DNA of 64,000 nt from Deinococcales bacterium (GCA_043778225.1 JAYWGM010000092.1:4842-68841), one strand, 5' to 3'; counted from the first letter of the stretch, positions 1 through 64,000 are shown. Numbers and translations are program-made. The notes: generated by a model not told the origin, from the letters alone.

Positions 1-1926
1 GCCCTCAAAAGCGTCACGGATTTTGGTGGAATTACCACAACCTCGAGTAACCTACGCCTTGCCACAGTTGCGACCTATGCCCAATCGGTGCGCCCTAGCC
101 AAGCCATGAGTGGTAACGGCACAGTTGCTGTGGTCGCAGGACAAGAGGATTTGGCATTATTTACCGAATACGACCTGAACGCCATGACCACAACCGCAGG
201 AGCAGCCCTTGCAAGCGGTGAATACCTTTTGCCTTATGGCTTTACAGTGCGTGATTTAGCCGCCCCAACTGCTGCCACCCAACGCACGATTACTGCCAGC
301 AACAGCGCTGACACTGGAACGGTCACACTGGCAATGGGTGTGAATGGCACGAACGAACCAACTGTTCCAACTGCCTACCGTTTTAGTTACACCGCACTGG
401 TTTTTGAAAATCCAACACCAGTTACCCAAGTTTCGGCTAGTCTCGAGGAAAAACCAAGTGCTTCTGTGGTTTCACGCCGTGGTGGACTTGCCCCTGCCGA
501 AGCGGTAACGCTGTACTCTTCGAGCCAGAATCAATTGGCAGACTTTGCTTTGCATCAAAACGGAGAGTACGCCAATGCTTGCCAAGTGCGAATTGCTGGA
601 ACTGCCACAGTCCCAGAAGCCTACTTAGAAAGTGTTGCCCCAAGTGTTATCTCGAGTCAACTTAATCCTTGCTTTGGCGGTGGCGGTTTACACACGGTTA
701 ATAATGGTCAACGCTACATCAACACCGACGTTGCGGTTCTATCCGATGGTCGAATTGCCACTGTAGGACAGTACGGTTCTGGTACGACCACGACTGGTTC
801 GTATGCCAGTATGGTTTTGCCAGATGGTTCACGCCAAGCCCTGCGTTCAATTAACGCGCACACCACCAGCACAGGCAATACCTTTTACACCAGTATTGCC
901 GTAGATTCACAAAACCGCATTATTCGGGCGGGCTACACCGAGGATTTAGGCGTGACAGCACTGGTGATTGGACGCAATTTGCCCGATGCAACCCTTTCTA
1001 ACGATACGACCTTCTCGAGCATTGACCATGTAATCACCACAATTCATGCTGCAACAGGTTCAGAACACGTGATTAACGACATTGCCGTGCAATCCGATGA
1101 TAAAATTGTGGCTGTCGGACGAGTCAAAAATGGTACGGCTGGCAATAACGATGTATTCCTGATACGGTACAACACCAATGGTACACTCGATACCACATTT
1201 AACACCACGGGCTATGTGATAGACGATGTGGATGGCGGTAGCTTAGACAACCAAGCGCTCAGTGTGCTGATAGACTCGAGCGGAAAAATTATTTTGGGTG
1301 GTAAACAAAATAATCCTGGTGCTTTTTTAATGATGCGGTTCACCAGTGCAGGCGCTCGAGACAATACTTTTAACAGCATTGGGCATAAAATTCAAGGCAT
1401 TACCAACGGCACGGATGATGCCGCTAATAGTATTGCGCTGCAAGGCACAAAAATCTTGTTTTCTGGATACACCAATCCAAATTCAACCCAAACGGGTTTG
1501 GCGGTGCTGCGAATCAATAATGATGGTACTTTAGACACAACTTTTGGCACAGGTGGCGAACTGATTTACACCAGCATCAATCCTTCTCGAGTCCGTGCCA
1601 ATAAAATTGTTGTTCAGCCCAATAATCGCTTTCTTATTGCCGGAACTTTAGAAGGACCCGGTAATTTAGCTTCGGCTTTTGTAGCTCGTTACTTAGCTGA
1701 TGGCGCACCCGAAAATACGTTTAACAGCACTGGAGTCCCTGCATTATATATCCAAAAATACGAATTTATGACCAATCAAAATGCGTATAAAGCAGGGGTT
1801 CATTCAGCCTTGCTTCTTGGAACACCGACCAATGGCAAATTGTTAATCGCTGGCTACTTCATGGATTCAAACATTCTAGGAAATCGTCGGGGAATGTTAG
1901 CTCAAGTCAACCTTGGCGCGAACTAA
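1..1926 (+). CDS. delta-60 repeat domain protein; 5' end probably lies outside the window
   Basis: Frame 1 is open from nt 1, with no stop before GTG 88 or ATG 106, and the in-window starts have no signal peptide. The C-terminal half carries repeated 'DGTLDTTFxxxG' and 'NTFNSxG' units typical of delta-60 repeats. A hairpin terminator follows. Confidence 0.6.
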   Translation, partial: ALKSVTDFGGITTTSSNLRLATVATYAQSVRPSQAMSGNGTVAVVAGQEDLALFTEYDLNAMTTTAGAALASGEYLLPYGFTVRDLAAPTAATQRTITASNSADTGTVTLAMGVNGTNEPTVPTAYRFSYTALVFENPTPVTQVSASLEEKPSASVVSRRGGLAPAEAVTLYSSSQNQLADFALHQNGEYANACQVRIAGTATVPEAYLESVAPSVISSQLNPCFGGGGLHTVNNGQRYINTDVAVLSDGRIATVGQYGSGTTTTGSYASMVLPDGSRQALRSINAHTTSTGNTFYTSIAVDSQNRIIRAGYTEDLGVTALVIGRNLPDATLSNDTTFSSIDHVITTIHAATGSEHVINDIAVQSDDKIVAVGRVKNGTAGNNDVFLIRYNTNGTLDTTFNTTGYVIDDVDGGSLDNQALSVLIDSSGKIILGGKQNNPGAFLMMRFTSAGARDNTFNSIGHKIQGITNGTDDAANSIALQGTKILFSGYTNPNSTQTGLAVLRINNDGTLDTTFGTGGELIYTSINPSRVRANKIVVQPNNRFLIAGTLEGPGNLASAFVARYLADGAPENTFNSTGVPALYIQKYEFMTNQNAYKAGVHSALLLGTPTNGKLLIAGYFMDSNILGNRRGMLAQVNLGAN

Positions 1927-1945
1927 AAAAATAAATTCTCGAGTG

Positions 1946-1982
1946 GGTCATTGGATTTATCCAATGACCTATTATTTTTTTG
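1946..1982 (+). terminator. rho-independent terminator (possibly bidirectional)
   Basis: 10-bp stem GGTCATTGGA/TCCAATGACC with a TTTA loop, followed by TATTATTTTTTT. An A-run precedes it. Confidence 0.7.
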
Positions 1983-1992
1983 AAGGGTTTTT

Positions 1993-2340
1993 TTAATCGG
2001 CAGCCTCAGCCAAACCAGTATTGACCACCACACCGTCTACAAATAAAACCCCAGTCCCGTGTTCAATATCCCAAGTGCATTCAAACTCGAGACCCCAAGA
2101 ATTAGATTTGTGCAATAAAAGGCGCGGAAAACTCAGCAGCGCCTCGAACTCGGTTATGTTTTGAACCTTCGGAGCAAGTTCTGGCACTCCAAAATAATCC
2201 AAAGCGGAAGAATGGTAATACTCGAGCAGTGCCTCGAGTGCCAATTGTTTGTACTTTTCTGGCTGATGAATGGTACAACGTGATAAATTGAAAGCCATGA
2301 ACTCAAGTGCTGCTAAACCTAAGGACATAGACCAGTACAT
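1993..2340 (-). CDS. hypothetical protein (start uncertain; ATG 2340, 2328 or 2298)
   Basis: 115-aa ORF with no motif I recognise. The longest form overlaps the divergent DUF1801 gene, so the ATG at 2298 may be the real start. Confidence 0.4.
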   Translation of the reverse strand: MYWSMSLGLAALEFMAFNLSRCTIHQPEKYKQLALEALLEYYHSSALDYFGVPELAPKVQNITEFEALLSFPRLLLHKSNSWGLEFECTWDIEHGTGVLFVDGVVVNTGLAEAAD

Positions 2341-5075: not shown

Positions 5076-5099
5076 ACCCCTCGAGAATTCTCGAGGGGT
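5076..5099. repeat. perfect 24-bp palindrome ACCCCTCGAGAATTCTCGAGGGGT
   Basis: Contains two CTCGAG copies around a GAATTC centre. It sits between the rplI stop (5118) and the NTase start (5069) and is a possible hairpin/terminator. Confidence 0.8.
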
Positions 5100-5117: not shown

Positions 5118-5573
5118 TTATAACGCGGTTACATTCAACTTCAAAGGAATCGGCACTTCTGGATGTGGCTTGTAAACCACGCCGTATTCGCCTAGGTCTT
5201 TGATGGCTTTGCCCATTTCAATTTTGCGCTTGTCTATTGCCAAGCCTGTTTGTTGTTCTACAGCATCAGCTACCATTTGATTGGTGACAGCGCCGTAAAT
5301 TTTACCTTCGCCAGCTTTGACTTTCAGTTCCACGACAATTTCGGCAAATTGACCAGCCAATTTTTCGGCATCGGTCTTAATCGCTTCTAAGCGCTTGACT
5401 TTGGCGCGTAGCTGCATCTCGAGGTTCTTGAGATTGCTTGGGGTTGCATAGGCTACCAAGCCACGTGGCACAAGGAAATTACGGGCGTAGCCGGGGCGTA
5501 CTTCGATGATGTTGCCAGTTGTTCCGAGCTTATTAACTGGCTCGAGAAGAATCACTTTGGAGTTCTTAGACAT
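5118..5573 (-). CDS. rplI: 50S ribosomal protein L9
   Basis: '[34 protein letters not shown]' is the L9 N-domain. It is the last gene of the rpsF-ssb-rpsR-rplI operon. Confidence 0.95.
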   Translation of the reverse strand: [151 protein letters not shown]

Positions 5574-5585
5574 AATGATTCCTCC

Positions 5586-5945
5586 TTATTTCCGCACGAG
5601 CTTGTCGGTGAATGGCAGTAAAGCAATCATCCGAGCGCGTTTAATCGTCAGCGCCAAACGGCGTTGGTTCTTGGCGTTGACCCCAGTGCGGCGGCGCGGC
5701 AGAATCCGACCAGTGTCGGAAACAAAGCGGCGCAGCATTTTGGCATCGTGGTAGTCCGTGACCTCGAGTTCACCCGTTTTGAAGGGGTCAACTTTCGGCT
5801 TGCGAGGACGCTTTGCGCCCTTGCCACCAGCTGCTCCGCCGCGCTTGTCGCCACGGTCGTTGTCGCGGTCGTTGCGGTCAGAACTGCGGTCTGAATTGCG
5901 GTCTCGAGAACCGCTGTTGCGATTGTTGGGTTTTCCTGCGGGCAT
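5586..5945 (-). CDS. rpsR: 30S ribosomal protein S18 with a long low-complexity N-terminal extension
   Basis: The C-terminal 'DYHDAKMLRRFVSDTGRILPRRRTGVNAKNQRRLALTIKRARMIALLPF' is the S18 core. The first ~50 aa are R/D/N/S/G-rich. Confidence 0.9.
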   Translation of the reverse strand: MPAGKPNNRNSGSRDRNSDRSSDRNDRDNDRGDKRGGAAGGKGAKRPRKPKVDPFKTGELEVTDYHDAKMLRRFVSDTGRILPRRRTGVNAKNQRRLALTIKRARMIALLPFTDKLVRK

Positions 5946-5954
5946 ATAAAACTC

Positions 5955-6848
5955 CTAAAATGGTAAATCTTCTTCTGGCGGGAAATCTTGTAAGCCGTCA
6001 TCAATGTCTGGTTTTGCACGGGACCCTGCGACTGGCGCAGACTGCTGTTGGGCAGCTGCGGCGGTGCGCGTCGGAGCGTAACCGCCGGCTTGGCGATTCG
6101 ACCCAGAGGTGGTTCCTAAACTGCCAGCAGTTCCGGGACCGCGAGCCAGTATTTCAATACGTCTTCCTTCAACACGGGTGGTTGATCTTTTATTACCTTC
6201 ACGGTCAGTCCAAGATTCGTTGACAAGTCTGCCCAAGACCATAATCGGGTCGCCTTTTTTGAGTTCTCCGGCGGCTTCGGCGAGGTCGCGCCACAAATTA
6301 ACCTCGACATAATGGGTTTTTTCTTGCCAGTTTCCAGTCTTGTCTTTCCAAGATTCATTGACAGCAATCGAAATGGTGGTAACAGCATCGCCATTTGGGG
6401 TGTAACGAAGTTCGGAATCTCGGGTTAAATTGCCGATTAAGACCACTTCGTTGAGGGCATTGGTCAAGCGCTTTCCACCAACACTGTCGGTCACAAGTGG
6501 TTCGGCGCGGTTGCCATAATTGGCGACCTCGACCCTAAGCGCTTTGACATTGACGGCGCTGCGTTTTTGACCTTCTGGGGTTTCCCAAGTGCGAAACTCC
6601 AAAGAACCTTCGACCAGCACAGCATCGCCAGCTTTCATATTGCCATCGGTTAAACGTTCGGCTTGTTGTCCAAGAATACTGACGCGGTGATACCACGGCA
6701 AAACTCTGGCTCGCCCATCGTTGCCCATCACATTATCTTCGCCAGCCACCGTTAAATCTGCTACGGCGATACCACTTGGGGTATAACGTAAGTCGGGGTC
6801 TTTTGCCAACGCGCCCATCAAATAAACGTGATTTAAGCCTCTTGCCAT
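5955..6848 (-). CDS. ssb: single-stranded DNA-binding protein with two OB folds per chain
   Basis: Two SSB OB modules ('LNHVYLMGALAKDPDLRYTPSG..' and 'LNEVVLIGNLTRDSELRYTPNG..'), then a Gly/Ala/Gln linker and the acidic tail 'DDGLQDFPPEEDLPF'. Confidence 0.95.
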   Translation of the reverse strand: MARGLNHVYLMGALAKDPDLRYTPSGIAVADLTVAGEDNVMGNDGRARVLPWYHRVSILGQQAERLTDGNMKAGDAVLVEGSLEFRTWETPEGQKRSAVNVKALRVEVANYGNRAEPLVTDSVGGKRLTNALNEVVLIGNLTRDSELRYTPNGDAVTTISIAVNESWKDKTGNWQEKTHYVEVNLWRDLAEAAGELKKGDPIMVLGRLVNESWTDREGNKRSTTRVEGRRIEILARGPGTAGSLGTTSGSNRQAGGYAPTRTAAAAQQQSAPVAGSRAKPDIDDGLQDFPPEEDLPF

Positions 6849-6937
6849 GTCTTTTCCTCTTCTCGAGCCTTAGCTCTACTGGTTACTTGCCAAAATCGTC
6901 TCGAGTCTGGGTTTTGTGCTTGCTCGAGGAAAGTGCC

Positions 6938-7249
6938 TTATGCCGCCTTTTTGGTGCGCCATTCGGGACGTTGTTTAACCACCATCACACGGCGCACATG
7001 GTCGCGTAAACGCAACGATGTTTGAATCGTGTTGGTGGCAGCTTCGGGCAGGTCTAAGCGGTAGACCAAAAAGTAGGCTTGCGTGTCCTTTTTGATCGTG
7101 TAAGCCAGCTTGCGATTACCCCACTCCTCGAGTGTTGCAACGCTTCCGCCACCGTTTTTAACTGCGTTTTCGATGTACTCTTTCTCGATTGCGATTTGAC
7201 TCTGGTCAAGATTTGGGTTGAGTAGCACGTTTAAGTCGTAATTTGCCAT
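6938..7249 (-). CDS. rpsF: 30S ribosomal protein S6
   Basis: 'YDLNVLLNPNLDQSQ...WGNRKLAYTIKKDTQAYFLVY' is the S6 signature. It is the first gene of the operon. Confidence 0.95.
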   Translation of the reverse strand: MANYDLNVLLNPNLDQSQIAIEKEYIENAVKNGGGSVATLEEWGNRKLAYTIKKDTQAYFLVYRLDLPEAATNTIQTSLRLRDHVRRVMVVKQRPEWRTKKAA

Positions 7250-37753: not shown

Positions 37754-37774
37754 GTTGACCTAAACTCTCGATTT

Positions 37775-38908
37775 ATGACTTACAAAATAAATTCCCACAC
37801 CCAATTTTTGAGAAGCCAACAAGTTTTGATGACTCAAAACACCAATAACATTGAGCTTCGGCATACTGTTTTTCAGACTTCTTGCCACATCAACCAAGTC
37901 GGGTATTCTGTTTGGCAACTTCTCGAGCAACCCCAAACCCTCGAGATGCTTGGTTCGCAGCTTGTCCACCAATACGATGTCAGTCCAGAAATTGCCAGCC
38001 GCACCCTAGAAAATCTGCTCGATCAATTGCATGGCTTGGGCTTTATAGGTGTGCAGTATGCAAATTTGCCCCCAGACCCAATGCGTCAACGGTATTTGGA
38101 ATTACTCCAAAAAGCCTTGATGAATTTGTTGTACCCCGAACATGAATTGCGAATTCGGCATTTGCTGATTGCCGAAAAACCAGCCAGTTCACTCGAGACA
38201 GACAGGTTTCTGCGTGATATTCGCAGCACACAACCAGAACAGTACGCCGAAGTTATGGCATCCAAACAAGTCGGTGGGGTGCTGTACAACGAAGTCACTC
38301 GGTATTCACACACCGCCATTGGGATTCGTCGCTTAGAGAATCTGCAAGCCTGTGCCGAAGCGGTCTTTGCCGATGGTATCAAAGGCGATTTTCTCGAGGC
38401 TGGAGTCTGCCAAGGTGGAGCATCTATTTTTATGCGGGCGTTGCAAGTGGCGTATGGGCAAGCCGAACGTCTCATGTGGGTGGCGGATTCATTTGCGGGT
38501 TTACCCGTGCCAACAGCCGACTTGGATGTGCAAAGTCAACTTGATTGGTCTGAACCTCGGCAACCGTGGTTGGCAATGAGTCTCGAGACGGTACAAGAAC
38601 ATTTTCGACGTTACGATATGCTGAGTGGTTCGGTACATTTTTTACAAGGTTGGTTTGCCGATACACTGCCTACAGCCCCGATTCAAAAACTGGCTATTTT
38701 GCGTCTCGATGCCGATTTATACAGTTCGACCACCGATATTTTAGAAGCCTTGTATAATCGGGTCTCGGCTGGTGGTTTTATTATCGTGGATGATTACGCG
38801 GGTATTAAAGCCTGCCGAGAAGCCGTGGATAACTTTAGAACCAAAAATAGTATTCTCGAGCCAATTCGCTCTGTGGATTGGAGTTGTGTCTACTGGCGTA
38901 AAGCCTAG
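37775..38908 (+). CDS. PqqD/RRE-like domain fused to a TylF (macrocin O-methyltransferase)-family methyltransferase
   Basis: The N-terminal 'HINQVGYSVWQLLEQPQTLEMLGSQLVHQYDVSPEIASRTLENLLDQLHGLGFI' is PqqD-like. The C-terminal 'GDFLEAGVCQGGASIFM', 'WVADSFAGLP' and 'LRLDADLYSSTTDILEALYNRVSAGGFIIVDDY' are TylF-family motifs. Confidence 0.75.
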   Translation: MTYKINSHTQFLRSQQVLMTQNTNNIELRHTVFQTSCHINQVGYSVWQLLEQPQTLEMLGSQLVHQYDVSPEIASRTLENLLDQLHGLGFIGVQYANLPPDPMRQRYLELLQKALMNLLYPEHELRIRHLLIAEKPASSLETDRFLRDIRSTQPEQYAEVMASKQVGGVLYNEVTRYSHTAIGIRRLENLQACAEAVFADGIKGDFLEAGVCQGGASIFMRALQVAYGQAERLMWVADSFAGLPVPTADLDVQSQLDWSEPRQPWLAMSLETVQEHFRRYDMLSGSVHFLQGWFADTLPTAPIQKLAILRLDADLYSSTTDILEALYNRVSAGGFIIVDDYAGIKACREAVDNFRTKNSILEPIRSVDWSCVYWRKA

Positions 38909-38910
38909 GT

Positions 38911-40428: not shown

Positions 40429-41378
40429 CAAAAGATTACTTATTATTTGGCTGGCGAGTACGTGCCAATATCAGATTGCCTTGTTTTGAATTATTCAAGA
40501 CGGGTGAACCAGACTGCTGCATCAATTTTTTACCTCCGCTCGAGTCACCTCAACTCTCCCTGCCAAATTTTGCGACCTTACTCGAAACCGATGGCGTACA
40601 GTCGGTTTGGCGGATAGACCAAGACACTTGGCGCATAGAAATGTTTAATCAAATCACCAATCAGTGGTTACAACTCAATTTTCGTCAATCTGGCAAAAAT
40701 ATCGAAGTAATCTACAGCCAAAACACGATTGTCGAAAACATCCTACCAATGCTGCTCACAAGGTTATTTACAACAATTTTATGGAATTCTGGACTCGTCT
40801 GCTTACACGGAGGTGTGGTCAATACCGAACAAGGTGGCGTTCTGCTGCTCGGGGATTCTGGCGATGGTAAATCCAGTACCTTAACCGCACTTTGGCAACA
40901 AGGTTGTACTGTGTTGAGCGATGATATTGCGGTTCTCGAGCCAAACGAACCTTGTCTGGTACATATTGGACCAAGGTATTTGCGCTTACACGACGACTCT
41001 GCCTCTGTACTGGGCATCAATCCAGAATCCCTACCAACCATATTTTTACCCGCCGAAACGATTGGCAATAAGCGTTACATCAACCTCGAACATCAAGTGT
41101 GTCCTGTCTCGGTGGCAGTGCAACAAATTTTTATTCTTGCTGGACGAGAAAATATCGAACAAACCAAATTGACTCGCCTTGCACCGTACATGGCTGTGGC
41201 AGAATTACTAAAATACCAATTTCGAGGTCAGCAACTCGAGCCACAAATTTACCCGCAACTCCTAAAAGTAGCTGTTGCCTTAGCGCACCAATGCCATGTC
41301 TACTTGGTTCACACGCCAGCTAACCTTGAGAAATTACCTGAAATAGCCCAAACGATACTTGGGCAGCCACTTGTATAA
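40425..41378 (+). CDS. HPr kinase-like protein (lasso peptide kinase family)
   Basis: 'GGVLLLGDSGDGKSSTLTAL' is an HprK-type P-loop. There is an ATGA start/stop overlap with the preceding gene. ATG 40425 is preferred to the ORF-track start at 40350. Confidence 0.7.
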   Translation: MTKDYLLFGWRVRANIRLPCFELFKTGEPDCCINFLPPLESPQLSLPNFATLLETDGVQSVWRIDQDTWRIEMFNQITNQWLQLNFRQSGKNIEVIYSQNTIVENILPMLLTRLFTTILWNSGLVCLHGGVVNTEQGGVLLLGDSGDGKSSTLTALWQQGCTVLSDDIAVLEPNEPCLVHIGPRYLRLHDDSASVLGINPESLPTIFLPAETIGNKRYINLEHQVCPVSVAVQQIFILAGRENIEQTKLTRLAPYMAVAELLKYQFRGQQLEPQIYPQLLKVAVALAHQCHVYLVHTPANLEKLPEIAQTILGQPLV

Positions 41379-48786: not shown

Positions 48787-49941
48787 ATGAAACTTCATGA
48801 GTACCAAGCTAAGGAATTACTAGCCAGTTATGGTGTGCCAGTGCCGATGGGAAAAATTGCCCGCACCCCAGAAGAAGCCAAAGCAATTGCTAACGAATAC
48901 GCTGCCATGACTGTGATTAAAGCCCAAGTTCATGTCGGTGGGCGTGGCAAGGCTGGCGGCGTGAAACTGGCTAAGGATGCCAATGATGCCTTTGAAAAAG
49001 CCCAAGCGATTCTGGGCATGGACATTAAAGGCTTAACGGTTAAAAAAGTCTTGGTCGCTAAAGCCGTGGATATTGCCAAGGAATACTACTGTGGCTTAAT
49101 TCATGACCGTAATGTCCAATCTTTTACTTTAATGGTCTCTAAAGAAGGCGGTGTGGACATCGAAGAGGTGGCTGCCACCAATCCAGAAGCGATTACCCGA
49201 TTTGCAATTGACCCAATCAAAGGCTTACGGGCTTTCGAAGCCCGCCAAATTGCCTTGGACGCTGGACTCGAGGGCAACCTTAACAAGATTGCTGCAATGA
49301 TGGTCGGCTTGTGGCAAGCGGCGGCTGGCTCGGACGCGACCTTAGCCGAAATTAACCCGCTTGTGATTACCACCACAGGCGAAGTGATTGCTGCTGACGC
49401 AAAAATAGACATTGATGACAACGCCATGTACCGCCATCCAGACCTCGAGGCGTACCGTGAAGTTGAAGCCGAGCATCCGCTCGAGGTCGAAGCCAAAGCC
49501 TTTGGTTTTAGTTACGTTAAACTCGATGGGCATATTGGCGTGATTGGTAATGGCGCGGGTTTGGTCATGACCAGCTTGGATGTCGTCTCGAGGGTTGGGG
49601 GCAAAGCTGCCAACTTCTTGGACATCGGCGGTGGCGCAAAAGCCGATATTGTTTATAACGCCGTTAAACTGGTCTGCAAAGACCCAGATGTAAAGGGCAT
49701 TTTAATTAACATTTTTGGTGGGATTACTCGCGCCGACGAAGTGGCTAAGGGTGTGATTCGCGCCCTCGAGGACGGGATTCTCAATAAGCCCCTCGCCATG
49801 CGTGTGGCTGGAACAGCCGTAGCCGAAGCTAACGAACTCTTAAAAGATAAACCAATCAACATTTATCCAACCATGATGGAAGCTGCTACAGCCGTCGTGG
49901 CTGAAGCCGCTCCCGTACCTGTATCGGAGGCAGCGTTATGA
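48787..49941 (+). CDS. sucC: succinate--CoA ligase (ADP-forming) beta subunit
   Basis: '[20 protein letters not shown]' and '[15 protein letters not shown]'. An AGGAGG SD lies 4 nt before ATG 48787. Confidence 0.95.
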
Positions 49942-50828
49942 GCATCCTAATCAATAAAAGCACCAAAGTCTTAGTGCAAGGCATCACTGGGCGCGAAGGC
50001 GCTTATCACACCGAGAAAATGCTCGAGTACGGTACACAAGTCGTGGCTGGTAGCACCCCCGGCAAAGGCGGACAAACCCTCAACGTGCTTGGCAAAAGTA
50101 TTCCAGTCTATAACAGTGTTCAAGAAGCCAAAGCGGCTCATCCAGACATCGATGCCAGCATTATTTTTGTACCACCGCCTGCGGCTGCCGATGCAACCCT
50201 CGAGGCGGCTCACGCTGGAATTGCGCTAATTGTCAATATCGCTGAAGGAATGCCGGTCTTTGACATGATGAAAGTGGTCAAAGAGTTAAAAGAAATGCCA
50301 AATGTGCGCTTAATTGGTGGGAACTGCCCCGGTTTAATTACGCCAGGTGAATGTAAGCTCGGAATTATGCCCGCCAGCACTTTCAAAGCTGGGCGGGTCG
50401 GGATGATCTCGAGAAGCGGTACTTTGACCTACGAAGCCAGTGCGATGCTCGCGGCGGCTGATATTGGTTGCAGCACTGTGGTTGGCATTGGTGGCGACCC
50501 CATGATCGGTACGACTTTTATAGATTTACTGCCAATGTTCAACGAAGACCCAAATACCGATGCCGTGGTCATGATTGGTGAAATTGGTGGCGCAGACGAA
50601 GAACAAGCCGCCGAGTGGATTAGTAAAAACATGAAAAAACCCGTGATTGCTTTTATCAGTGGGCGCACTGCACCAAAAGGAAAGCGCATGGGTCACGCTG
50701 GAGCGCTGATTATGGGCAATGTCGGCACAGCTGAATCCAAGCTCGAGGCGATGGCGAAAGCCAATGTACCAGTGGCAGATACGATGGAAGATATTATTGT
50801 ATTGACCAAAAAAGCTCTTGGGTTATAA
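49938..50828 (+). CDS. sucD: succinate--CoA ligase alpha subunit
   Basis: '[11 protein letters not shown]', 'SRSGTLTYE' and 'MGHAGALI' (phosphohistidine loop). Confidence 0.95.
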
Positions 50829-55079: not shown

Positions 55080-55679
55080 TTAACGCGAAGTCATATGAAC
55101 CAGAATTCCTAGGATAGCCTCGAGTTCGGTCAATGTATATTCACGAATATCCAAGGTGACTTGTGTTCCCTCGAGTTGTAAAAATCGCCAATCTGTACCA
55201 CTGGTGACAGCGCCAAAAATCTTTTCTCGAGCCTGATTACGGGCTTGATTAAAACGTTGTGCCGCGATCATCTCTGCTACACACTGGGCAATCCCGCCAG
55301 ATAAATCTTCACGTTTTGCCTCTACAAGCATCACCACAGGGGCTTGTACTTGAATTAAAAGTGGGTCTTGGCTGATTAAAAAGTCACAGAAACCATGTAA
55401 ACCAAGTTTTTTATCAACATTGAATGCTACGCCAGAAAAAACAGCAATTCGCTGCTCGAGGATTTCACGAATCTCGACTAGAATGGGGGCGATAATATGT
55501 TCGGAACGGGCTTTTTCTGTGCCTTTGCCAATCACAAGTGGTAAATTGCGTTTGAGTACAGCGGTTAGTAAATCGCTGGCTTTTTGAAGTTTGACTTGGG
55601 CAAATAAATCTTTATTCTGCACAATAGAAAGTGCAAATCGTTGTATCAGTAAATCCAAGGTGAAGCCTTCGTATGCCAT
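55080..55679 (-). CDS. PD-(D/E)xK nuclease-superfamily protein (HsdR-N-like)
   Basis: 'GFCDFLIS...VVMLVEAKRED' gives a D...ExK arrangement. CTCGAG density is native-like (4 copies in 600 bp). Confidence 0.5.
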   Translation of the reverse strand: MAYEGFTLDLLIQRFALSIVQNKDLFAQVKLQKASDLLTAVLKRNLPLVIGKGTEKARSEHIIAPILVEIREILEQRIAVFSGVAFNVDKKLGLHGFCDFLISQDPLLIQVQAPVVMLVEAKREDLSGGIAQCVAEMIAAQRFNQARNQAREKIFGAVTSGTDWRFLQLEGTQVTLDIREYTLTELEAILGILVHMTSR

Positions 55680-55708
55680 AGCGTTAGCCTAGCACAGCAT
55701 CTAGCTGT

Positions 55709-55784
55709 TTATAGATACTTTTCGAGCCAACCTAGATACTCTTTTAGCCTAAAGACCCGCCTATCTGGTCTGCCGCTTTTCGAG
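55709..55784 (-). pseudogene. orphan copy of the last 25 codons plus stop of the S9 peptidase gene (left direct repeat)
   Basis: Encodes ..SKSGRPDRRVFRLKEYLGWLEKYL*, versus ..SRSGRPDRRVFRLKEYLGWLEQHL* in the live gene at 58475-58550. The 63-nt core is 59/63 identical. Confidence 0.85.
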
Positions 55785-55860
55785 TTTATTTTATACCGAG
55801 TCTCAAGTCGCTCGAATAAAATCATTTACGCAACGAAATTGTTCGAGGTTGAACATAGCT

Positions 55861-55969
55861 GTGTCAATAATGCTAGTCTATGGATTGGGATTATATCACT
55901 CAAGAAGATTTGGCGGCAACACCTACATTTGGTGTCAATAATGCTAGTCTATGGATTGGGATTATATCA
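55861..55969 (+). repeat. perfect 38-bp direct repeat with a 33-bp spacer
   Basis: GTGTCAATAATGCTAGTCTATGGATTGGGATTATATCA occurs at 55861-55898 and 55932-55969, at the 5' end of the REase-like gene. Confidence 0.95.
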
Positions 55970-56896
55970 ATGGTCATTACAAGAAATCTTCATACCCAAA
56001 AAGCTGAAATTTTGCGCTATTTGCGAGACCGCGCCTCAGAAGCTTATGGCGAAATTGTGGTGGTTTATGGCGAGCGTGACTTCAAAAAAAGAGGCACAGC
56101 GATCAATCAAGCAATTGCAAAAACCATTTCAAATTTGAAGACCATTATTGTGCAACGGGCTGCAAGTCAAAATTGGAATCAAGAAGAGAAGTTAAAAAAT
56201 ATTCTTATTGTGACTTACTGTTCTTATGTTGTGATGATTGAATTTAGAAATATGGTTTGGGCATACGAATATATGGCTTTTTCTCGAAGAATTGGCGAAT
56301 TGTGGGATCCTTTTTGTAGACTTTGTTTTGATTATCCTGTACGCAGCGATATTGAACTTTATGAACCACCACTTTTTTCAGAAGTCAAAGAACAACTTCA
56401 AAATGAAATTCGGATTTATATTGCGAATCTTTATTTGACTCAAGAAGAAAAAAGTAGGCTTGTTTCTTACTATGATAAGGTTTGGAGCTTGGTGACTTCT
56501 GGCGAGATTCAGTTGGAACTTGACCTCCATTTTCGTATTGGAGATATTAATTTCAATGTTGATTTTAAGAGTGGGTTTCAATCAAATGAAAAAGGAAATA
56601 CAAATCGCCTACTTTTGGTGGCTTCAATTTATAAAAATATATTGAGTTCAAATAATGAGTGTCTTTTGCTTGTTCGAGCCAATGAAGATGAGAACAATAA
56701 TTATTTGCAAACACTCAAGAACTCGGGTATTTGGAGTGTCTATTGTGGTGCGCAAGCCTACGAGAAAATTTATCAGTACAGTGGTTTTGATTTGGCTGAT
56801 TGGATACAAAATAATGTTTCTTGGATAACAGATTTTCTGCCTGAAACACATCAATATCTCGAGCAAAATGACCTAGCGAAGTATTTAATATGGTAG
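55880..56896 (+). CDS. putative type II restriction endonuclease (start uncertain)
   Basis: 338-aa AT-rich ORF overlapping the MTase start by 7 nt, with a weak PD-(D/E)xK-like 'ELDLHF..GDINFNVDFK'. The call rests mainly on context. Because the 71-nt repeat period shifts the frame, an alternative ATG at 55970 is possible. Confidence 0.4.
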   Translation: MDWDYITQEDLAATPTFGVNNASLWIGIISMVITRNLHTQKAEILRYLRDRASEAYGEIVVVYGERDFKKRGTAINQAIAKTISNLKTIIVQRAASQNWNQEEKLKNILIVTYCSYVVMIEFRNMVWAYEYMAFSRRIGELWDPFCRLCFDYPVRSDIELYEPPLFSEVKEQLQNEIRIYIANLYLTQEEKSRLVSYYDKVWSLVTSGEIQLELDLHFRIGDINFNVDFKSGFQSNEKGNTNRLLLVASIYKNILSSNNECLLLVRANEDENNNYLQTLKNSGIWSVYCGAQAYEKIYQYSGFDLADWIQNNVSWITDFLPETHQYLEQNDLAKYLIW

Positions 56897-58395
56897 GGAC
56901 AGTCTCGAGAAAACGAAATGAGTTTCAGGCATTTTATACAAACTGCAATGATATTACTTCTTACATGGTTGGGTTATTGGACTGTCAAGCGGGAATGTCA
57001 ATTTTAGAGCCATGCGCTGGAGATGGGGCGATTATAGACGAATTGCTTAAGCAAAATTCTCGAGCGCAAATTTCTGCTTTTGAAATGAACAACCAAAGTG
57101 TAAGCAATCTTAAAAGAAAATATCGAATGGTCAACACAGTTCAAATTACTGGGGTCGATTTTACGCAATATCATTCGCAAAACACTTATGACAGAATTAT
57201 TGCCAATCCTCCATATGGTGCTTATCAAACCCTTGAAAAACGGGCAGAACTCAAAAATGAGTATCCAGATTTATATGCCAAAGAAACTTACGGAATCTTT
57301 TTGGCAAAAGCCATAGAAATGCTTTTGCCAAAAGGACGTTTAGTATTTATCGTTCCAGATACTTTTTTGACACTGCATATGCACCAAGGATTAAGAAAAA
57401 AACTACTTCTCGAGTGCAAAATTGAGTCTATTACACTATTCCCATCGCATTTTTTCCCCAGTGTTCATTTTGGCTATGCAGGACTTTGTATTATTTCGGC
57501 TTGCAAAGATGTGGCACATGAATGTGATTTTCCTGTTTATAAAGGTTTGACAAGTACCCAAGACCTCAAAATCTTACTGACACCACAAAAAGTCAGTTTT
57601 GAGATTTGTCAGCTTTCCTACAGGCAAATAAAAACGAATCCTGCCCATTCTTTTTATCTATCTAATGATTTACAGATTCAAACTTTGCTCGAACAAGGTT
57701 TACCGACGCTCGAAAATATCTGTGATGTTGTGACCGGATTTTATTCTGGAAACGATGCAATATATCTTAGGAGAGCCGAAAAAGTGAAACGTGGAGTTCA
57801 TAAATATAAAACTATTGAACTTGATTTGATTTATCAAGAACCCACGCCTTCGCTTGAGGGAATTGAAGCAGCAAACTATTGGATACCTATTGTTAAAGGT
57901 GGTAACAGGCGTTTCTATAAACCGTCTGAATGGTTTATGGACTGGAGTAAAAACGCGATTCACGACTATAAAGTGGTCAATAAGAAGAAAGCTAGATTTC
58001 AAAATTCGCAATTTTATTTTCGACAAGGAATTGCCGTACCAATGGTTTCGTCGAGTGCAATAACGGCGGCACTCATCAACAATAGATTATTTGACCAATC
58101 AATTGTTGGAATTTTCCCAAAAGAGGATTACCAGTTTTTACTGATGTATCTGCTTGGATTTTTTAACTCGAGTATCTGTAATCGTTTTATCCGAATCATT
58201 AACGCAAGCACCAATAACTCATCAAACTATATCAAAAAAATCCCATTTTTGATGCCCAATAAAGATCAAATTGATACTGTTTCTAGCTTAGTAGTTGGGC
58301 TGTGTGAACTTGCAAATTACAGAGAAATTAAGGCATCTGATTTACACACTCTGGATACAGTTTTTGAACAAATTTATCAACTCAAGAGCATCTAA
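56890..58395 (+). CDS. N6-adenine DNA methyltransferase, gamma class (TaqI/Eco57I-like)
   Basis: Motif I 'ILEPCAGDGAII', motif IV 'IIANPPYG', then 'YGIFLAKAIEMLLPKGRLVFIVPDTFL'. The C-terminal target-recognition region is unassigned. Confidence 0.85.
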   Translation: MVGTVSRKRNEFQAFYTNCNDITSYMVGLLDCQAGMSILEPCAGDGAIIDELLKQNSRAQISAFEMNNQSVSNLKRKYRMVNTVQITGVDFTQYHSQNTYDRIIANPPYGAYQTLEKRAELKNEYPDLYAKETYGIFLAKAIEMLLPKGRLVFIVPDTFLTLHMHQGLRKKLLLECKIESITLFPSHFFPSVHFGYAGLCIISACKDVAHECDFPVYKGLTSTQDLKILLTPQKVSFEICQLSYRQIKTNPAHSFYLSNDLQIQTLLEQGLPTLENICDVVTGFYSGNDAIYLRRAEKVKRGVHKYKTIELDLIYQEPTPSLEGIEAANYWIPIVKGGNRRFYKPSEWFMDWSKNAIHDYKVVNKKKARFQNSQFYFRQGIAVPMVSSSAITAALINNRLFDQSIVGIFPKEDYQFLLMYLLGFFNSSICNRFIRIINASTNNSSNYIKKIPFLMPNKDQIDTVSSLVVGLCELANYREIKASDLHTLDTVFEQIYQLKSI

Positions 58396-58474
58396 ATGCT
58401 TACTGAACTATGCACCACAAGTCAATTTTGTAGTGCATGCAAACTCAAGGATTGTGATTTCTCGAGCCGAACTT

Positions 58475-60394
58475 TTACAGGTGCTGCTCGAGCCAACCTA
58501 AATACTCTTTTAACCTAAAGACCCGCCTATCTGGTCTGCCACTTCTCGAGAGTTCGTGGTTCTCGGCTGGAAAACGCACCAAACGGGTTGGTACACCTAA
58601 ATTCTTGAGCGCCACAAACCACTGCTCGGCTTGCTCGATTGGGCAACGGTGGTCCTCCTCTGAATGCACAATTAAACATGGTGTCTTGACATTTTTAATG
58701 TGTTTAAGCGGCGATTTTTCCCAGAGCCGATCAAAATCTTCTGGGACTTTGCCGCGCAATTCTCGAGGCACAAAGCGGTAGCCAATGTCAGATGTGCCGT
58801 TAAACGAGACCCAATTGCAAATGCTGCGGTCGGTAATTGCTGCCTTAAAGCGTTGGCTGTGTGAAATTGCCCAGTTGACCATTAAGCCGCCGTAGCTTCC
58901 ACCAACAATCGCAATGCGTTTTGGGTCTAAATAAGTATGTTGATCTAAACAAGTGTCTAAAAACGCCATCAGGTCAGCATAGTCGCCGTTTAGGTAATCG
59001 CCACCAATTCCAGCCGTTTGGGCATCGCCGTAGCCCGTGCTGCCGCGAATGTTGCAAAATGCGACCGCATAGCCAGCCGCCGCGAGGGTCTGAAATTCGT
59101 TCATGTAGGCATAGCCCCAAGCCGTGGCAGGTCCGCCGTGGACATTTAAGACCATCGGGTACTTTTTGCCGCGTTTTTTCTCGAGTGGGTGCAGCAGCCA
59201 ACCTTCTATGGTGTAACCTTCGCGGATAAAGCGAAGATGCTCGAGGTCGCGTCCGGCGGCACTTTTGTTAAAATCCGAAAGCTGTTTACCGACAAAATGC
59301 AGTTCGCAAGGGTGGGCATGATGCTCGAGTAAATAGGCAATTCGACCATCTTTGGTGGCAGCAAAGGCTGGAACGCTTGAGGATTGCGGCTCGATTCGGG
59401 TTTTGAGCTTGCCATCCAAGGTCAGTTCATAAACGCCACTGCTGCCGCCTTTTTGGGCTAAGGTCAGAATTGTTTGGTCGTCGAGCCAGATTGGCGTAAG
59501 CGGGTAATTGCCAAGGTGCGAATCGGAATTGACGGTTTGTCCAATCCAGAGGTCGTGTTCTGCGCCAATTGGCTCGAGTTGAGATTTACTCTCGAGTTTG
59601 CCGACGTACAAATGCAGGTCGCCCGGCTGATCGGCAAAATCTGGGTCGGCAACCACGGCATAACGTAAGCCATCTGGCGAGACCGCAATTTGCCCAATAA
59701 AGCCACGAAAATCGGTCAAGCGCCGTGGTTTTTTCTTACCGAGCAACAACAAAAAGACTTCAGTTTGCCACTGCTGGGCTGCCTCGAGATTGCGGGCTGC
59801 CACAAAAACCAGTCCCCAACCATCGGGAAGCCAAGCAAAACTTTCGATGTCGGTGCTGTGGCTCGAGATGACCTCGAGTTTTTGAGTCTCGAGGTCAAGC
59901 ACATACAGCGCTAAGGGTTCGGTTGGCAGGAAACCGATATTGGGTATCCCATTGGATTTATAACGCAGATGCTCGACCACCCGAGGCAGCCCGTCTTCTT
60001 GGGCGGTGTCTGTCCAATCGCCACGCGATAAAAAAGCCACCCGAGTCCCATCGCTCGAGAATTGCGGATTTGCAACACCAGATTTGAGGTCGGTCAGTTT
60101 GCGAGGTTCGCCGCCGGTCATTGAAACTGTAAATAGTTGTGGTTTTTTATCCACGACTCGAGTAAAAATAAGCGCCGTGCCATCTGGAGAAAATCTGGGC
60201 TGGCTGTCTTTGTGTTCGCCAGACGTAAAGCGCTGTACGGCTTGGTCGTGGCTCGAGACAAAAATCCCCGAGGTATAGGATTTTTTATCGCTTGCCACTT
60301 CGGTCATCACACAAGCCACATACTGCCCATCGGCGGATACAATTGGTTCGGAGGCAATTTTTAAGCCATACAAAGATTCGGCAATTTGAGTCAT
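58475..60394 (-). CDS. S9-family serine peptidase (acylaminoacyl/prolyl oligopeptidase-like)
   Basis: Beta-propeller N-domain, 'IVGGSYGGLM' (GxSxGG nucleophile elbow) and 'HSEEDHRCP'. ATG 60394 is preferred to 60466. Confidence 0.85.
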   Translation of the reverse strand: MTQIAESLYGLKIASEPIVSADGQYVACVMTEVASDKKSYTSGIFVSSHDQAVQRFTSGEHKDSQPRFSPDGTALIFTRVVDKKPQLFTVSMTGGEPRKLTDLKSGVANPQFSSDGTRVAFLSRGDWTDTAQEDGLPRVVEHLRYKSNGIPNIGFLPTEPLALYVLDLETQKLEVISSHSTDIESFAWLPDGWGLVFVAARNLEAAQQWQTEVFLLLLGKKKPRRLTDFRGFIGQIAVSPDGLRYAVVADPDFADQPGDLHLYVGKLESKSQLEPIGAEHDLWIGQTVNSDSHLGNYPLTPIWLDDQTILTLAQKGGSSGVYELTLDGKLKTRIEPQSSSVPAFAATKDGRIAYLLEHHAHPCELHFVGKQLSDFNKSAAGRDLEHLRFIREGYTIEGWLLHPLEKKRGKKYPMVLNVHGGPATAWGYAYMNEFQTLAAAGYAVAFCNIRGSTGYGDAQTAGIGGDYLNGDYADLMAFLDTCLDQHTYLDPKRIAIVGGSYGGLMVNWAISHSQRFKAAITDRSICNWVSFNGTSDIGYRFVPRELRGKVPEDFDRLWEKSPLKHIKNVKTPCLIVHSEEDHRCPIEQAEQWFVALKNLGVPTRLVRFPAENHELSRSGRPDRRVFRLKEYLGWLEQHL

Positions 60395-60776
60395 GCCCAA
60401 TAGCATACCGCGTGGTAGGCTTGAAGACGTGCATCTCGACCCAATTTCGGCGGTCTGGCTGGTCATCAGTAACCAAATAGCGGCTGATGAGCGGATTACT
60501 TTGCAATCTGGAGAAGAAAAATACGCCCTAATTTTTACTGATTTGGCTGTAGCTCATGAGTTTATGCGCGATATGCAAGACCCAAATTTATTCCTTGAGC
60601 GGCTCGAGAACTGGGTTTTTAAGGAAACTTTTTTAACCACCCTGAGGCTTTTATCGGTCACTCGAGTGATGTTTGATTATGCCCAAGGTCAGCACAACGC
60701 ACTTTCCGCGCCGCTTGACTTGTTGCAGGCGCACTGCAAAGCCCAAATTGGCACACGCCCTCGAGCCGAAGCCTGA
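60393..60776 (+). CDS. hypothetical protein (start uncertain; GTG 60429 possible)
   Basis: 127-aa ORF divergent from the peptidase gene. 'YALIFTDLAVAHEFM' is faintly SseB-like, which is not enough for a call. Confidence 0.35.
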   Translation: MPNSIPRGRLEDVHLDPISAVWLVISNQIAADERITLQSGEEKYALIFTDLAVAHEFMRDMQDPNLFLERLENWVFKETFLTTLRLLSVTRVMFDYAQGQHNALSAPLDLLQAHCKAQIGTRPRAEA

Positions 60777-62170: not shown

Positions 62171-62208
62171 GGTTAATCTCGAGAATTTAGTTATCCTCGA
62201 GATTAACC
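62171..62208. terminator. bidirectional hairpin between convergent genes
   Basis: GGTTAATCTCGAG / CTCGAGATTAACC forms a 13-bp perfect stem with a 12-nt loop. Each arm ends in CTCGAG. Confidence 0.6.
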
Positions 62209-62214
62209 AGCAAG

Positions 62215-62706
62215 CTAACGGGTAAACACATAGTCGTTCTCGGCTGTTTTTGTATGGCACTGGTTACATTTGGCAATTGCGCCTCGAGTTTGTGCGCCGT
62301 TTGCCTCAAGCGCAATTTTTCCAGTGGTTACATCCAACACAAACCATTCCCAGCCACCGCCGTCTGGATTAAAGCCAGCCCCACGTTTGACCATAGCAGT
62401 TGCACCGAGTAGCGTATTGCTTTTATCGGTGTACTGCTTGACCAGTGTTGTGCCGATTGGGAATTTGCCGTTGTCGGTGCGGTCAGCGTTGTTTTTAATA
62501 TAGATGGTGCGGGTCGTGTTTGGGTTATCTGACAAATGCGCTCCTTGGGTTAAGTCCGAATTCCCACTGACTTTATCAACCAAAGTCCATTTGCTGAAAT
62601 TGCTAAAATCTTCGTTTTGGGCAATATATCCAGCCCCAGATTTAGGCATACAAGCCACCGCAACCAGACCAATAACTGTCAGCACCAACATTTGCGTACT
62701 TTTCAT
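62215..62706 (-). CDS. cytochrome P460-family lipoprotein
   Basis: Lipobox 'LVAVAC' and a C-terminal heme motif 'CNQCHTKTAENDYVFT', as in the cytochrome P460 family. Confidence 0.6.
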   Translation of the reverse strand: MKSTQMLVLTVIGLVAVACMPKSGAGYIAQNEDFSNFSKWTLVDKVSGNSDLTQGAHLSDNPNTTRTIYIKNNADRTDNGKFPIGTTLVKQYTDKSNTLLGATAMVKRGAGFNPDGGGWEWFVLDVTTGKIALEANGAQTRGAIAKCNQCHTKTAENDYVFTR

Positions 62707-62875
62707 AATGACCTCCGAGTTTTTGAATCAATAAACATACGCAAAAAGTAGATTAAGAGTTCAGTTTTATGAGCTATGTCTCATGAATGGTTGTGTAAGC
62801 TCCTGCCATGCTCAGTGAAGACGAGAAAAAACAGATTCGACTCGAGTAGGAAATCCAAGCGAACAACTTTTGATA

Positions 62876-63952
62876 TTACGGCGAGATTTCGCGTTTACTC
62901 GAGGTAAAACTGAGTTTAGGATTGATTTTCTTAGCAATCCAAATGCCAACCCAAATTAGTCCAGTCAGCACAAAAACCAGTAAATAATCTATGGCGGGAA
63001 TCCGAATGATTTCGTTGAGTTTGCCCCAGCCTCGGATTGAATAAACATAGACCACTGCCGCGCAGTAGATTCCAAGAATCAGCCAGCGCGACCACTGTGG
63101 AATTTTAAGCCCATACAACTGCGTGACCACCAAAATACCAGCAAAGCCAAAAGCAAACATTGCCCAGATACCATTGCCTTGGGCAACCGCCACCAATGTG
63201 CCATGGATCAAGACGCTAAACTCGAGCGAAAATGTCCACCAGCGATTAACGTGCGCTCTGGTAAAGAACAAACTGCCTTGGAGCAGCAACAAAAACATAT
63301 AAATAAAGCCAATTAGATGCCCCGGTGTGCTGACCATTGGGTGATACCAAAAGGTATAAATCGTTGCCCAGGAAAAAAAGTAGCCGTGATGTTTTTTAAG
63401 AAAATCGATTACTTCGCTGTTTAAGGGGGCTTTTTTTCCAAAGAACATCCCTCGGCGTTTATTTTCCATAATCAGCACCATCACCAACAACAAAATCACG
63501 CTGCCTTGGCTCGAGAAAATGCTGACATCTTGGGCAAGTCCATCGTAAAAAAGGTGGGATTGCAATAAGTGCAGGCTAATAAATAGAGCATTAAAGCCCA
63601 GCGCCACAATGTTGATGCGGTGCAAACTGTTGGAATAGGTCTTGACCTTATTTTGGGCATACCAAATCGTCCACCAAATCGAGACTTGATGCAAAATATA
63701 CAAGCCCCAAACCGAGGCTCGAGTCCAAAAAGTCGGTTCGGTCAATTTCCAATAATAATGGTCTGCGCCTGTGTCTGGTGCTAGGTCAGTGCGGTTCAGG
63801 CGGTCGCCAAGAAACCAAATCAGGGCGGTAAATAAGAGGCTAAACAGAATCCCGCCCCATAAGGCGGTACTGCTCGAGGGCGGTTTTGGTTCAGATATTT
63901 TTGGTAATGCACTTTGCATCGGCTCATCCTGCGCCTTGGGGCGTAAAATCAA
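62876..63952 (-). CDS. polytopic membrane protein, unknown function
   Basis: 358 aa with about 9 TM helices. An alternative ATG lies at 63919. Confidence 0.5.
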   Translation of the reverse strand: MILRPKAQDEPMQSALPKISEPKPPSSSTALWGGILFSLLFTALIWFLGDRLNRTDLAPDTGADHYYWKLTEPTFWTRASVWGLYILHQVSIWWTIWYAQNKVKTYSNSLHRINIVALGFNALFISLHLLQSHLFYDGLAQDVSIFSSQGSVILLLVMVLIMENKRRGMFFGKKAPLNSEVIDFLKKHHGYFFSWATIYTFWYHPMVSTPGHLIGFIYMFLLLLQGSLFFTRAHVNRWWTFSLEFSVLIHGTLVAVAQGNGIWAMFAFGFAGILVVTQLYGLKIPQWSRWLILGIYCAAVVYVYSIRGWGKLNEIIRIPAIDYLLVFVLTGLIWVGIWIAKKINPKLSFTSSKREISP

Positions 63953-64000
63953 CGGGTGATAGCTTACAATTGAATTTCTTTTGGGCGAAAAATCGGCAAG

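Follow-up and report, generated by a model that had tools for sequence, protein, structure and literature searches.

A hyper-abundant CTCGAG palindrome in the genomes of an uncultured Deinococcales lineage

The palindromic hexamer CTCGAG is present in 403 copies in a 64,000-base stretch of DNA from a Deinococcales bacterium (GCA_043778225.1, JAYWGM010000092.1:4842-68841; hereafter the window), and it is also the commonest hexamer in nine related assemblies from different projects, with G+C contents of 45–62% and densities of 2.8–6.9 sites per kb. The pressure responsible is exerted on the DNA word itself. Synonymous and some non-synonymous choices give way to it, and it preserves existing sites even at long divergence and adds sites to incoming DNA. 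We propose, with moderate confidence, that CTCGAG is a highly iterated palindrome (HIP) of the type described in cyanobacteria, that it characterizes an entire uncultured lineage of Deinococcales, and that it is linked to a DNA methyltransferase and selectively maintained. The window comes from a 136.8-kb scaffold of a glacier-fed-stream metagenome (ENA ERZ28574018), and the same sequence has been assembled from other samples.

An earlier note, made from the sequence alone, had put the number of copies at about 400, or one per 160 bp; the exact count corresponds to 6.3 sites per kb, with a mean spacing of 159 bp and a median of 125 bp. CTCGAG is by far the commonest hexamer of the window, ranks two to seven being occupied by its own overlaps, and the most frequent unrelated hexamer has 98 copies. 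Dinucleotide-preserving shuffles (n = 100) contained a mean of 8.0 copies (standard deviation 2.6, maximum 16), Markov models of order 0, 1 and 2 predict 14.6, 8.4 and 24 copies, and a background estimated with the sites masked predicts 4.6–5.0. Shuffling of synonymous codons, which retains the proteins and a codon usage already distorted by the word, gave 29.3 ± 5.1 copies (maximum 46), whereas the coding DNA of the window has about 370. The enrichment over chance is 50–80-fold, and the excess claimed in the earlier note stands whether the comparison is made with the shuffles, the masked background or the synonymous shuffles. That note had also proposed a maximal-order Markov expectation as the yardstick, a count close to which would speak against the claim, and the value obtained, 353, is indeed close to 403. 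This model was discarded as a null because the sub-words from which it is built are products of CTCGAG itself, which makes its value uninformative: 403 of the 454 copies of CTCGA, 403 of the 449 copies of TCGAG (89–90%) and 403 of the 578 copies of TCGA (70%) lie inside CTCGAG.

The flanks of the sites, from −4 to −1 and from +1 to +4, have a base composition near background, and no extended flank is kept. All four bases precede the word, as the earlier note had it (A 99, C 69, G 125, T 110), but the context GGCTCGAGCC, which it had called frequent, is found in only eight copies, and TTCTCGAGCC in 14. The 16 possible octamers around CTCGAG have 9–42 copies each, and the top decamer has 14. Each of the 18 one-off variants is represented by 0–23 copies, and is thus far rarer than the word, as previously remarked; the reverse arrangement, GAGCTC, is absent from the window. 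Given the near-uniform flanks, the low count of every one-off variant and the lack of GAGCTC, the unit under pressure is exactly the hexamer CTCGAG. A dispersed repeat (a repetitive extragenic palindrome or a miniature inverted-repeat transposable element) would have conserved sequence past the core, and the flanks here are close to background. One further word, CACGAG/CTCGTG (BssSI-type), is depleted in the window, with four copies for 13–16 expected, the other one-off variants that do not contain CTAG being at or above expectation.

A simple gene call of the window gave 65 genes and 91% coding sequence. Site density is the same in coding (6.30 per kb) and non-coding DNA (6.23 per kb), and genes of both strands carry sites. 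Of the sites within genes, 214 are read as CTC-GAG, 72 as xCT-CGA-Gxx and 80 as xxC-TCG-AGx, and a further 37 sites are intergenic. The three codon phases and two strands listed in the earlier note are therefore all in use, and its view that the signal acts on DNA rather than on a peptide is borne out by the equal densities, by the use of all frames and strands and by the lack of a flank consensus. Leu-Glu is spelled CTCGAG at 214 of its 309 occurrences (69%), where codon usage would predict 2–6%, and 57% and 43% of the peptide contexts permitting the other two frames carry the word. The dipeptide itself is 2.4 times more frequent than expected (309 versus 128.5), and because Glu-Leu is at expectation (125 versus 128.5), the DNA word drives protein sequence, and not the reverse. 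This DNA-level pressure has raised the number of Leu-Glu dipeptides by about 180 in 19,000 codons, and foreign genes are rewritten after their arrival. SucC, for example, contains four or five Leu-Glu in this lineage, versus 2.1 ± 1.1 in 74 orthologues from other phyla, and the Leu-Glu excess is found in all site-rich relatives but not in a site-free one (L227, described below). About half of the CTC and GAG codons of the window lie inside CTCGAG; the suggestion that TCG and CGA codons would be used mainly inside the word proved too strong, as only about a third of them are (81 of 232 and 75 of 208, respectively).

The predominance of the Leu-Glu frame (58% of coding sites) might be taken to indicate a preference for a peptide or a codon pair. 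The equal density of sites in non-coding DNA, the use of the other two frames and the failure of the synonymous shuffle to reproduce the count (29 versus 370) refute this reading, as the lack of any conserved flank refutes a dispersed repeat and the occurrence of the same excess in assemblies from several projects and technologies refutes an artefact of assembly or cloning; we accord these three readings together practically no probability. The word does, however, carry a cost and gives way where constraint on the protein or its expression is strong, since site density falls to 3.75 per kb in the rplI-rpsR-ssb-rpsF operon, in which the gene for the single-stranded DNA-binding protein SSB (5955–6848), with two OB-folds, has no site at all. 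Close pairs of sites are also scarce (28 gaps of less than 30 bp, versus 54–69 expected; Kolmogorov–Smirnov p = 6e-5), and long gaps are likewise fewer than expected.

The word is shared by relatives of very different base composition. A search with SucC, with one genome retained per species, yielded six relatives with 83–97% amino-acid identity, all metagenome-assembled genomes (MAGs) of Deinococcales bacteria and one of them a closed chromosome of 5.09 Mb (OZ252252.1). CTCGAG is the top hexamer in each, with 2.8–6.9 copies per kb at 61% G+C as well as at 45–53%, and does not exceed 1.7 copies per kb at the remaining 74 SucC loci (at most 55% identity). The earlier note had allowed that the excess might be confined to the window or be generated by assembly; the nine related assemblies that share it dispose of the first possibility, and their independence, with the closed chromosome among them, of the second. 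Two of the loci compared, L001 and L002, are identical in sequence.

The SSB of the window is of the two-OB-fold form typical of the phylum, and its nearest named relatives are those of Deinobacterium chartae (62% identity) and Deinococcus species (54–61%). A metagenome scan with this protein gave eight loci, and one with an RNase R-like protein gave none. Site density is high in genomes close to the window by SSB: 5.8 per kb in L217 (JAESGJ01; 80% identity, 62% G+C), 4.4 per kb in L218 (80%, 59% G+C) and 6.3 per kb in L226 (GCA_965190885.1; 73%, 60% G+C). L227 (GCA_965191025.1, CBCZNU010000078.1; 67% identity) has no site in 20.9 kb and a normal frequency of Leu-Glu, although its G+C content is that of the window (48%) and it is nearer by SSB than Deinobacterium. 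Its DnaB carries an intein. Six metagenome loci, L219–L224 (49–57% identity, 63–73% G+C), have at most 0.5 sites per kb, and a segment of a Deinococcus wulumuqiensis megaplasmid (65.5% G+C) has a single site in 49 kb. In the cultured Deinobacterium chartae (type strain, GCA_014202645.1, JACHHG010000008.1 108328–129185; 65% G+C), CTCGAG is again the top hexamer, with 61 copies in 20.9 kb (2.9 per kb), nearly half of which lie within the top octamer, CCTCGAGG (28 copies), and Leu-Glu is in excess in this segment (57 versus 34.7 expected). Deinobacterium chartae thus shows the phenomenon in a weaker form, based on an octamer. The trait is old, lineage-wide and independent of base composition, and is patchy at deeper levels.

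Viral contigs were scanned for clusters of three CTCGAG, a criterion that itself selects for the pattern. The matches are mostly of high G+C content, and in many GAGCTC is as common as CTCGAG, a sign of codon usage. One contig, L201, has 57 CTCGAG in 9.7 kb and no GAGCTC; it is without the palindrome-avoidance profile of the clade described below, and its open reading frames (ORFs) have no Pfam matches. Another, L149 (IMGVR_UViG_3300029258_003487; 67% G+C), has 35 CTCGAG in 5.1 kb, half of them within CCTCGAGG, and is the only one that looks akin to the Deinobacterium form; its host may be Deinobacterium-like, the contig being a phage or prophage that shares the word of that host.

Synteny between members of the clade is confined to sucCD and the ssb operon, and the conservation of sites was therefore assessed in 21 orthologous gene pairs. 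CTCGAG was retained in 69% of cases, versus 25% for all other hexamers; where the amino acids are identical, retention was 85.5% versus 32.6%, and in pairs with less than 80% nucleotide identity it was 84% versus 26%. These values, which answer the call in the earlier note for a comparison at orthologous positions, show that synonymous positions are under far tighter hold within CTCGAG than outside it. In an alignment of sucCD from seven genomes with 74–93% pairwise nucleotide identity, two of the ten window sites are CTCGAG in all genomes and most of the others in four to six, with gains and losses in each lineage. sucCD is 92–93% identical in L008 and L009, and in L006 and L010. As the DNA flanking it in L008 and L009 is not comparably similar, though both contigs reach well past sucCD, the segment may have been rearranged, or exchanged by recombination, among clade members.

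The gain of sites is evident in a piece of foreign DNA. The longest stretch of the window free of the word (55455–56858, 1,403 bp, where 0.06 such gaps would be expected), already singled out as odd and AT-rich in the earlier note, falls largely within a restriction-modification island of 2.7 kb (55785–58473). The island is bounded by a 77-bp direct repeat, with copies 88% identical, that duplicates the 3' end of an S9 peptidase gene; its insertion therefore involved no integrase and produced a long duplication of the target. It is foreign and recently acquired. It nevertheless contains six CTCGAG (2.2 per kb), where its composition would predict about 0.3, and the four sites in its methyltransferase gene are each absent from the homologues in a Chamaesiphon genome and another metagenome, and each coincide with an amino-acid difference. 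DNA resident in the genome thus acquires the word, and the gain continues. The 77-bp repeat has two positions at which CTCGAG in the native copy is matched by TTCGAG in the relic one, an anecdote that would fit a loss by C-to-T change as well as a gain by T-to-C change.

The methyltransferase of the island (Pfam PF07669, Eco57I, and PF02384, N6_Mtase) has a catalytic domain matching M.TaqI, the rest of the protein matching PglX of the bacteriophage exclusion (BREX) system, and its homologues are found in many phyla. The ORF upstream, which overlaps it, has no match in Pfam (the XhoI family included) or NCBIfam, but has over 2,300 homologues, a family of proteins of about 308 aa that always adjoin an Eco57I/TaqI-like methyltransferase; since the ORF of the window has 338 codons, its true start is probably internal. 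The residues D215...D228-x-K230 are invariant across the homologues, and the confident AlphaFold2 model (predicted local distance difference test score, pLDDT, 85) has only weak best fold matches in the PDB, to restriction and nicking enzymes, none with E <0.05. The protein is probably a member of an undescribed family of type II restriction endonucleases, and the island can be predicted to be a mobile type II restriction-modification unit. Chamaesiphon, a MAG of a proteobacterium and a further metagenome contig share the gene pair, MAGs of Thiotrichales and Desulfobacterales (sulfur bacteria) have close homologues of the two proteins, a phage has the methyltransferase paired with a second methyltransferase instead, and the homologues on plasmids are at most 38% identical and carry generic names only.

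This system might itself recognize CTCGAG and have caused the enrichment. Its methyltransferase is a TaqI-like N6-adenine enzyme of the gamma class, as is M.PaeR7I, the methyltransferase of CTCGAG; TCGA is the core of the word, and CTCGAG is scarce in the hosts of homologous systems (1 copy for 6.5 expected). This avoidance is not specific to the word, as these hosts avoid CTGCAG and many other palindromes to the same degree, and restriction systems select against their own sites. The putative nuclease does not match the XhoI family of Pfam, and the island, with 36% G+C, is itself poor in CTCGAG. Its foreign composition, the duplication flanking it and the failure to find a close copy in the relatives (the best homologue, 66% identical, is on unrelated contigs) indicate that it is not the cause of a trait that is far older than the island and common to genomes down to 73% SSB identity; this explanation seems very improbable to us.

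Variants differing from CTCGAG at one position are, with the sites masked, mildly more frequent than expected (205 observed, 134 expected), those differing at two positions being at expectation. The three transition classes are the most enriched (1.9–2.2-fold; TTCGAG/CTCGAA 2.2, CTTGAG/CTCAAG 1.9), as would be expected of decayed or nascent sites. These figures bear on the possibility that CTCGAG has no function and results from a bias in short-patch repair or gene conversion, Vsr-like or due to mismatch repair and linked to a methyltransferase or nuclease of CTCGAG, that turns near-matches into the word. The equal density of sites in coding and non-coding DNA, their gain in foreign DNA even at the price of amino-acid changes, and the CTCGAG/TTCGAG differences between the two copies of the 77-bp repeat would all follow from such a process, and an origin through repair has been proposed for the cyanobacterial word HIP1 (Elhai, 2015; PMC4390886). 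Efficient Vsr-like conversion would be expected to deplete one-off variants, and their mild enrichment argues against it, the more so as the would-be products of deamination are the most enriched of all; conversions occurring independently of each other also do not predict the shortage of close pairs. The Dcm/Vsr system of E. coli (CCWGG) is similar in that a methyltransferase-linked process raises the frequency of a palindromic target, but it depletes the variant derived from T:G mismatches, and the corresponding variants are about twofold enriched here. The effects of Vsr and Dcm on word frequency are, moreover, modest, and not of the order of 50–80-fold. We consider a by-product of repair unlikely, though distinctly less so than an effect of the island.

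The other palindromes of the window have in general been purged. Of the 64 palindromic hexamers, 25 are absent, and 35 of the 63 others than CTCGAG have an observed/expected ratio of 0.2 or less; the 63 together have 336 copies where 1,016 would be expected. Among the tetramers, GGCC is absent (277 expected), and GATC (36 versus 170) and CCGG (65 versus 212) are strongly depleted. The low-G+C relatives (L005, L006, L008, L009 and L010) have no GGCC either, for about 194 expected, whereas it persists in the high-G+C relatives, with 119 copies for 146 expected (L007) and 20 for 132 (L217). CTGCAG, GAGCTC, GACGTC, GTCGAC and GGATCC are missing or nearly so in every member of the clade, those of high G+C content (L007, L217 and L226) included. 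This purge suggests the presence of many long-standing restriction systems, and CTCGAG is the single GC-rich palindrome to escape it.

The closest known counterparts of CTCGAG are the HIP words of cyanobacteria: HIP1, GCGATCGC, and the alternates GGCGCC, GCsGC, GGGATCCC, rCCGGy and TCGATCGA (PMC4390886; PMC5861425). The resemblance to HIP1 suggested in the earlier note holds for the features that can be compared. HIP words are short GC-rich palindromes over-represented at least 15-fold genome-wide and found within genes in all frames and between genes; CTCGAG is such a palindrome, tens of times over-represented, with the same distribution in the window, and it ranks first among the hexamers of nine related assemblies too. 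The sites of HIP1 are conserved above background, a property that led Xu, Lawrence and Durand (2018) to favour selection over biased repair (PMC5861425), and the same reasoning extends to CTCGAG, whose sites are retained at orthologous positions to a degree that protein constraint does not account for (85.5% versus 32.6%, from the 21 pairs, which are not independent). Both types of word are specific to a lineage and found in genomes rich in signs of restriction-modification. Both also have flanks that vary over a shared core: CTCGAG in the clade of the window and CCTCGAGG in Deinobacterium chartae on the one hand, and on the other the variants of HIP1, which share the methyltransferase core CGATCG (PMC4390886). 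Orphan methyltransferases accompany both HIP1 and its variants in cyanobacteria (PMC4390886). CTCGAG differs from HIP1 in being a hexamer and not an octamer, and in its 2–20 times higher density (6,300 per Mb, versus 300–2,700 per Mb; PMC4390886). HIP words also show a periodicity of 10–90 kb along the chromosome, and the contiguous sequence compared here is 64 kb. It is not one of the described HIP words, and its host belongs to the Deinococcota and not to the Cyanobacteria. The view of the earlier note that no CTCGAG equivalent had been described is in line with its absence from the list of Elhai (2015; PMC4390886), and searches of the full-text literature found no description of an iterated CTCGAG; subscription journals lie largely outside their coverage, so an earlier report is possible. 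CTCGAG would be, to our knowledge, the first HIP-like element outside cyanobacteria, and the densest.

In the explanation that we favour, CTCGAG would be recognized by a sequence-specific protein that the lineage has conserved; a solitary DNA methyltransferase with the specificity of XhoI/PaeR7I is the most likely candidate. An enzyme of the restriction-modification type is suggested because the word is a classical type II palindrome, because it is exempt from the purge and because its flanks differ over a constant core. The word is identical to the XhoI/PaeR7I site, and palindromic hexamers are typical type II targets, but the targets of an active system are normally avoided in its host, whereas CTCGAG is enriched 50–80-fold; no gene of the XhoI family was found in the window with Pfam. 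The sites would be retained through a genome-wide function dependent on their density, candidates being a self-mark of the chromosome for recombination or transformation, repair, and organization of the nucleoid, and the density observed would represent an equilibrium between the gain of sites, their decay by transitions and their cost in coding sequence.

Several points weigh against this explanation. No protein recognizing CTCGAG was identified in the 64-kb window or in the segments of clade DNA sampled, which amount to only about 0.2 Mb. HIP words are expected to have a cognate methyltransferase (Elhai, 2015), and the sole DNA methyltransferase seen in the window lies in the recent foreign island and cannot explain an old, clade-wide trait. 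Counts per 2-kb interval are Poisson-like (variance/mean 1.04), with no strong regular spacing. The pairwise counts of conservation are not phylogenetically independent, although the effect is large, and a strong repair bias restoring the sites would also conserve them, so that selection is not proven.

The word might alternatively be a signal for DNA uptake or recombination, with DNA that carries it preferred and the word itself spread by molecular drive, like the uptake signal sequences (USS) of Pasteurellaceae and the DNA uptake sequences (DUS) of Neisseriaceae, a possibility compatible with the foregoing proposal, as uptake could depend on methylation. CTCGAG resembles these words in being specific to a clade and common to its related species, in reaching at least about one copy per kb, in being conserved at orthologous sites and in leaving a footprint in the proteome. 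It is scarce in newly acquired DNA, which then gains it, less dense in constrained genes and, with few close pairs, more evenly spaced than random, and inverted pairs of CTCGAG form terminator-like hairpins; the two intergenic hairpins reported in the earlier note are both real (Table 1). Traits of this kind are established for USS in Haemophilus and DUS in Neisseria, and Deinococcus and Thermus are naturally transformable. However, USS and DUS are non-palindromic 9–12-mers that have an extended consensus and whose receptor is known or inferred; CTCGAG is a bare 6-bp palindrome without flank consensus, which would give little discrimination per site. We know of no uptake sequence that resembles a bare hexamer palindrome and of no sequence preference in uptake by Deinococcus or Thermus. 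HIP1 itself has now been proposed to play a role in transformation (bioRxiv 10.64898/2026.06.24.733823; 10.1101/2024.09.10.611283). An uptake signal is, in our opinion, the strongest of the competing explanations, but still a doubtful one.

A broader and frankly speculative possibility is that hyper-iterated palindromes have arisen convergently in transformable, restriction-rich bacteria, with methylated CTCGAG as a dense self-mark, spread by drive, for the uptake and recombination of DNA from kin or for repairing and reassembling the chromosome. What HIP1 does has been asked for three decades, and the question could until now be addressed in one phylum only; if the proposal is correct, this lineage would provide an independent test of HIP function based on another word, and its cultured relative Deinobacterium chartae, with CCTCGAGG, makes the phenomenon experimentally approachable. 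The on/off pattern (present in nine MAGs, weaker in Deinobacterium chartae, absent from L227 and Deinococcus) allows a comparative search for the gene responsible, with L227 as a natural negative control. The word also skews binning based on k-mers, and can serve as a signature for assigning contigs, possibly including prophages, to the lineage.

The features of the window are listed in Table 1; no tRNA or Rfam family was found in it.

Table 1. Positions of the CTCGAG sites and of other features in the 64,000-base window.
Feature	Position	Strand	Basis
CTCGAG sites, 403 copies	1..64000	.	counts, whole window
Perfect 22-bp palindrome CCCCTCGAGAA/TTCTCGAGGGG with two CTCGAG (5080, 5090), intergenic terminator-like hairpin	5077..5098	.	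sequence
rplI-rpsR-ssb-rpsF operon, 3.75 sites/kb	5118..7249	-	Pfam, density
IMP dehydrogenase gene with intein (~33156-34233), homing-endonuclease domain	32097-34787		Pfam Hom_end_hint
Lasso-peptide gene cluster	34784-41378		
sucC-sucD, used for orthologous-site comparison	48787..50828	+	alignment of seven genomes
Relic copy of 77-bp direct repeat, TTCGAG x2	55708..55784	+	alignment
AT-rich restriction-modification island, 36% G+C, 6 CTCGAG	55785..58473	+	composition
Putative PD-(D/E)XK restriction endonuclease ORF, 338 aa	55880..56896	+	motif, predicted structure
Gamma-class N6-adenine DNA methyltransferase, Eco57I/TaqI-like	56890..58395	+	Pfam PF07669, PF02384
Native copy of 77-bp repeat, 3' end of S9 peptidase gene, CTCGAG x2	58474..58550	+	alignment
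Atxe2-like/S9 peptidase	58475-60466		
Inverted repeat TTAATCTCGAG...CTCGAGATTAA, 11-bp stem, 12-nt loop, pair of CTCGAG, between convergent genes	62173..62206	.	sequence

The earlier note had described the intein and the lasso-peptide cluster as carrying the word at near-native density, which agrees with the values obtained, 6.5 sites per kb for the intein of the IMP dehydrogenase gene and 5.8 per kb for the cluster; the native density in the intein identifies it as a long-term resident. The lasso cluster encodes a transglutaminase-like protease, PqqD, a cyclase similar to Asn synthetase, a PqqD-TylF methyltransferase and an HPr-kinase-like protein, with a candidate precursor of 54 aa at 37502–37666, and this gene content suggests that its product is a modified lasso peptide.

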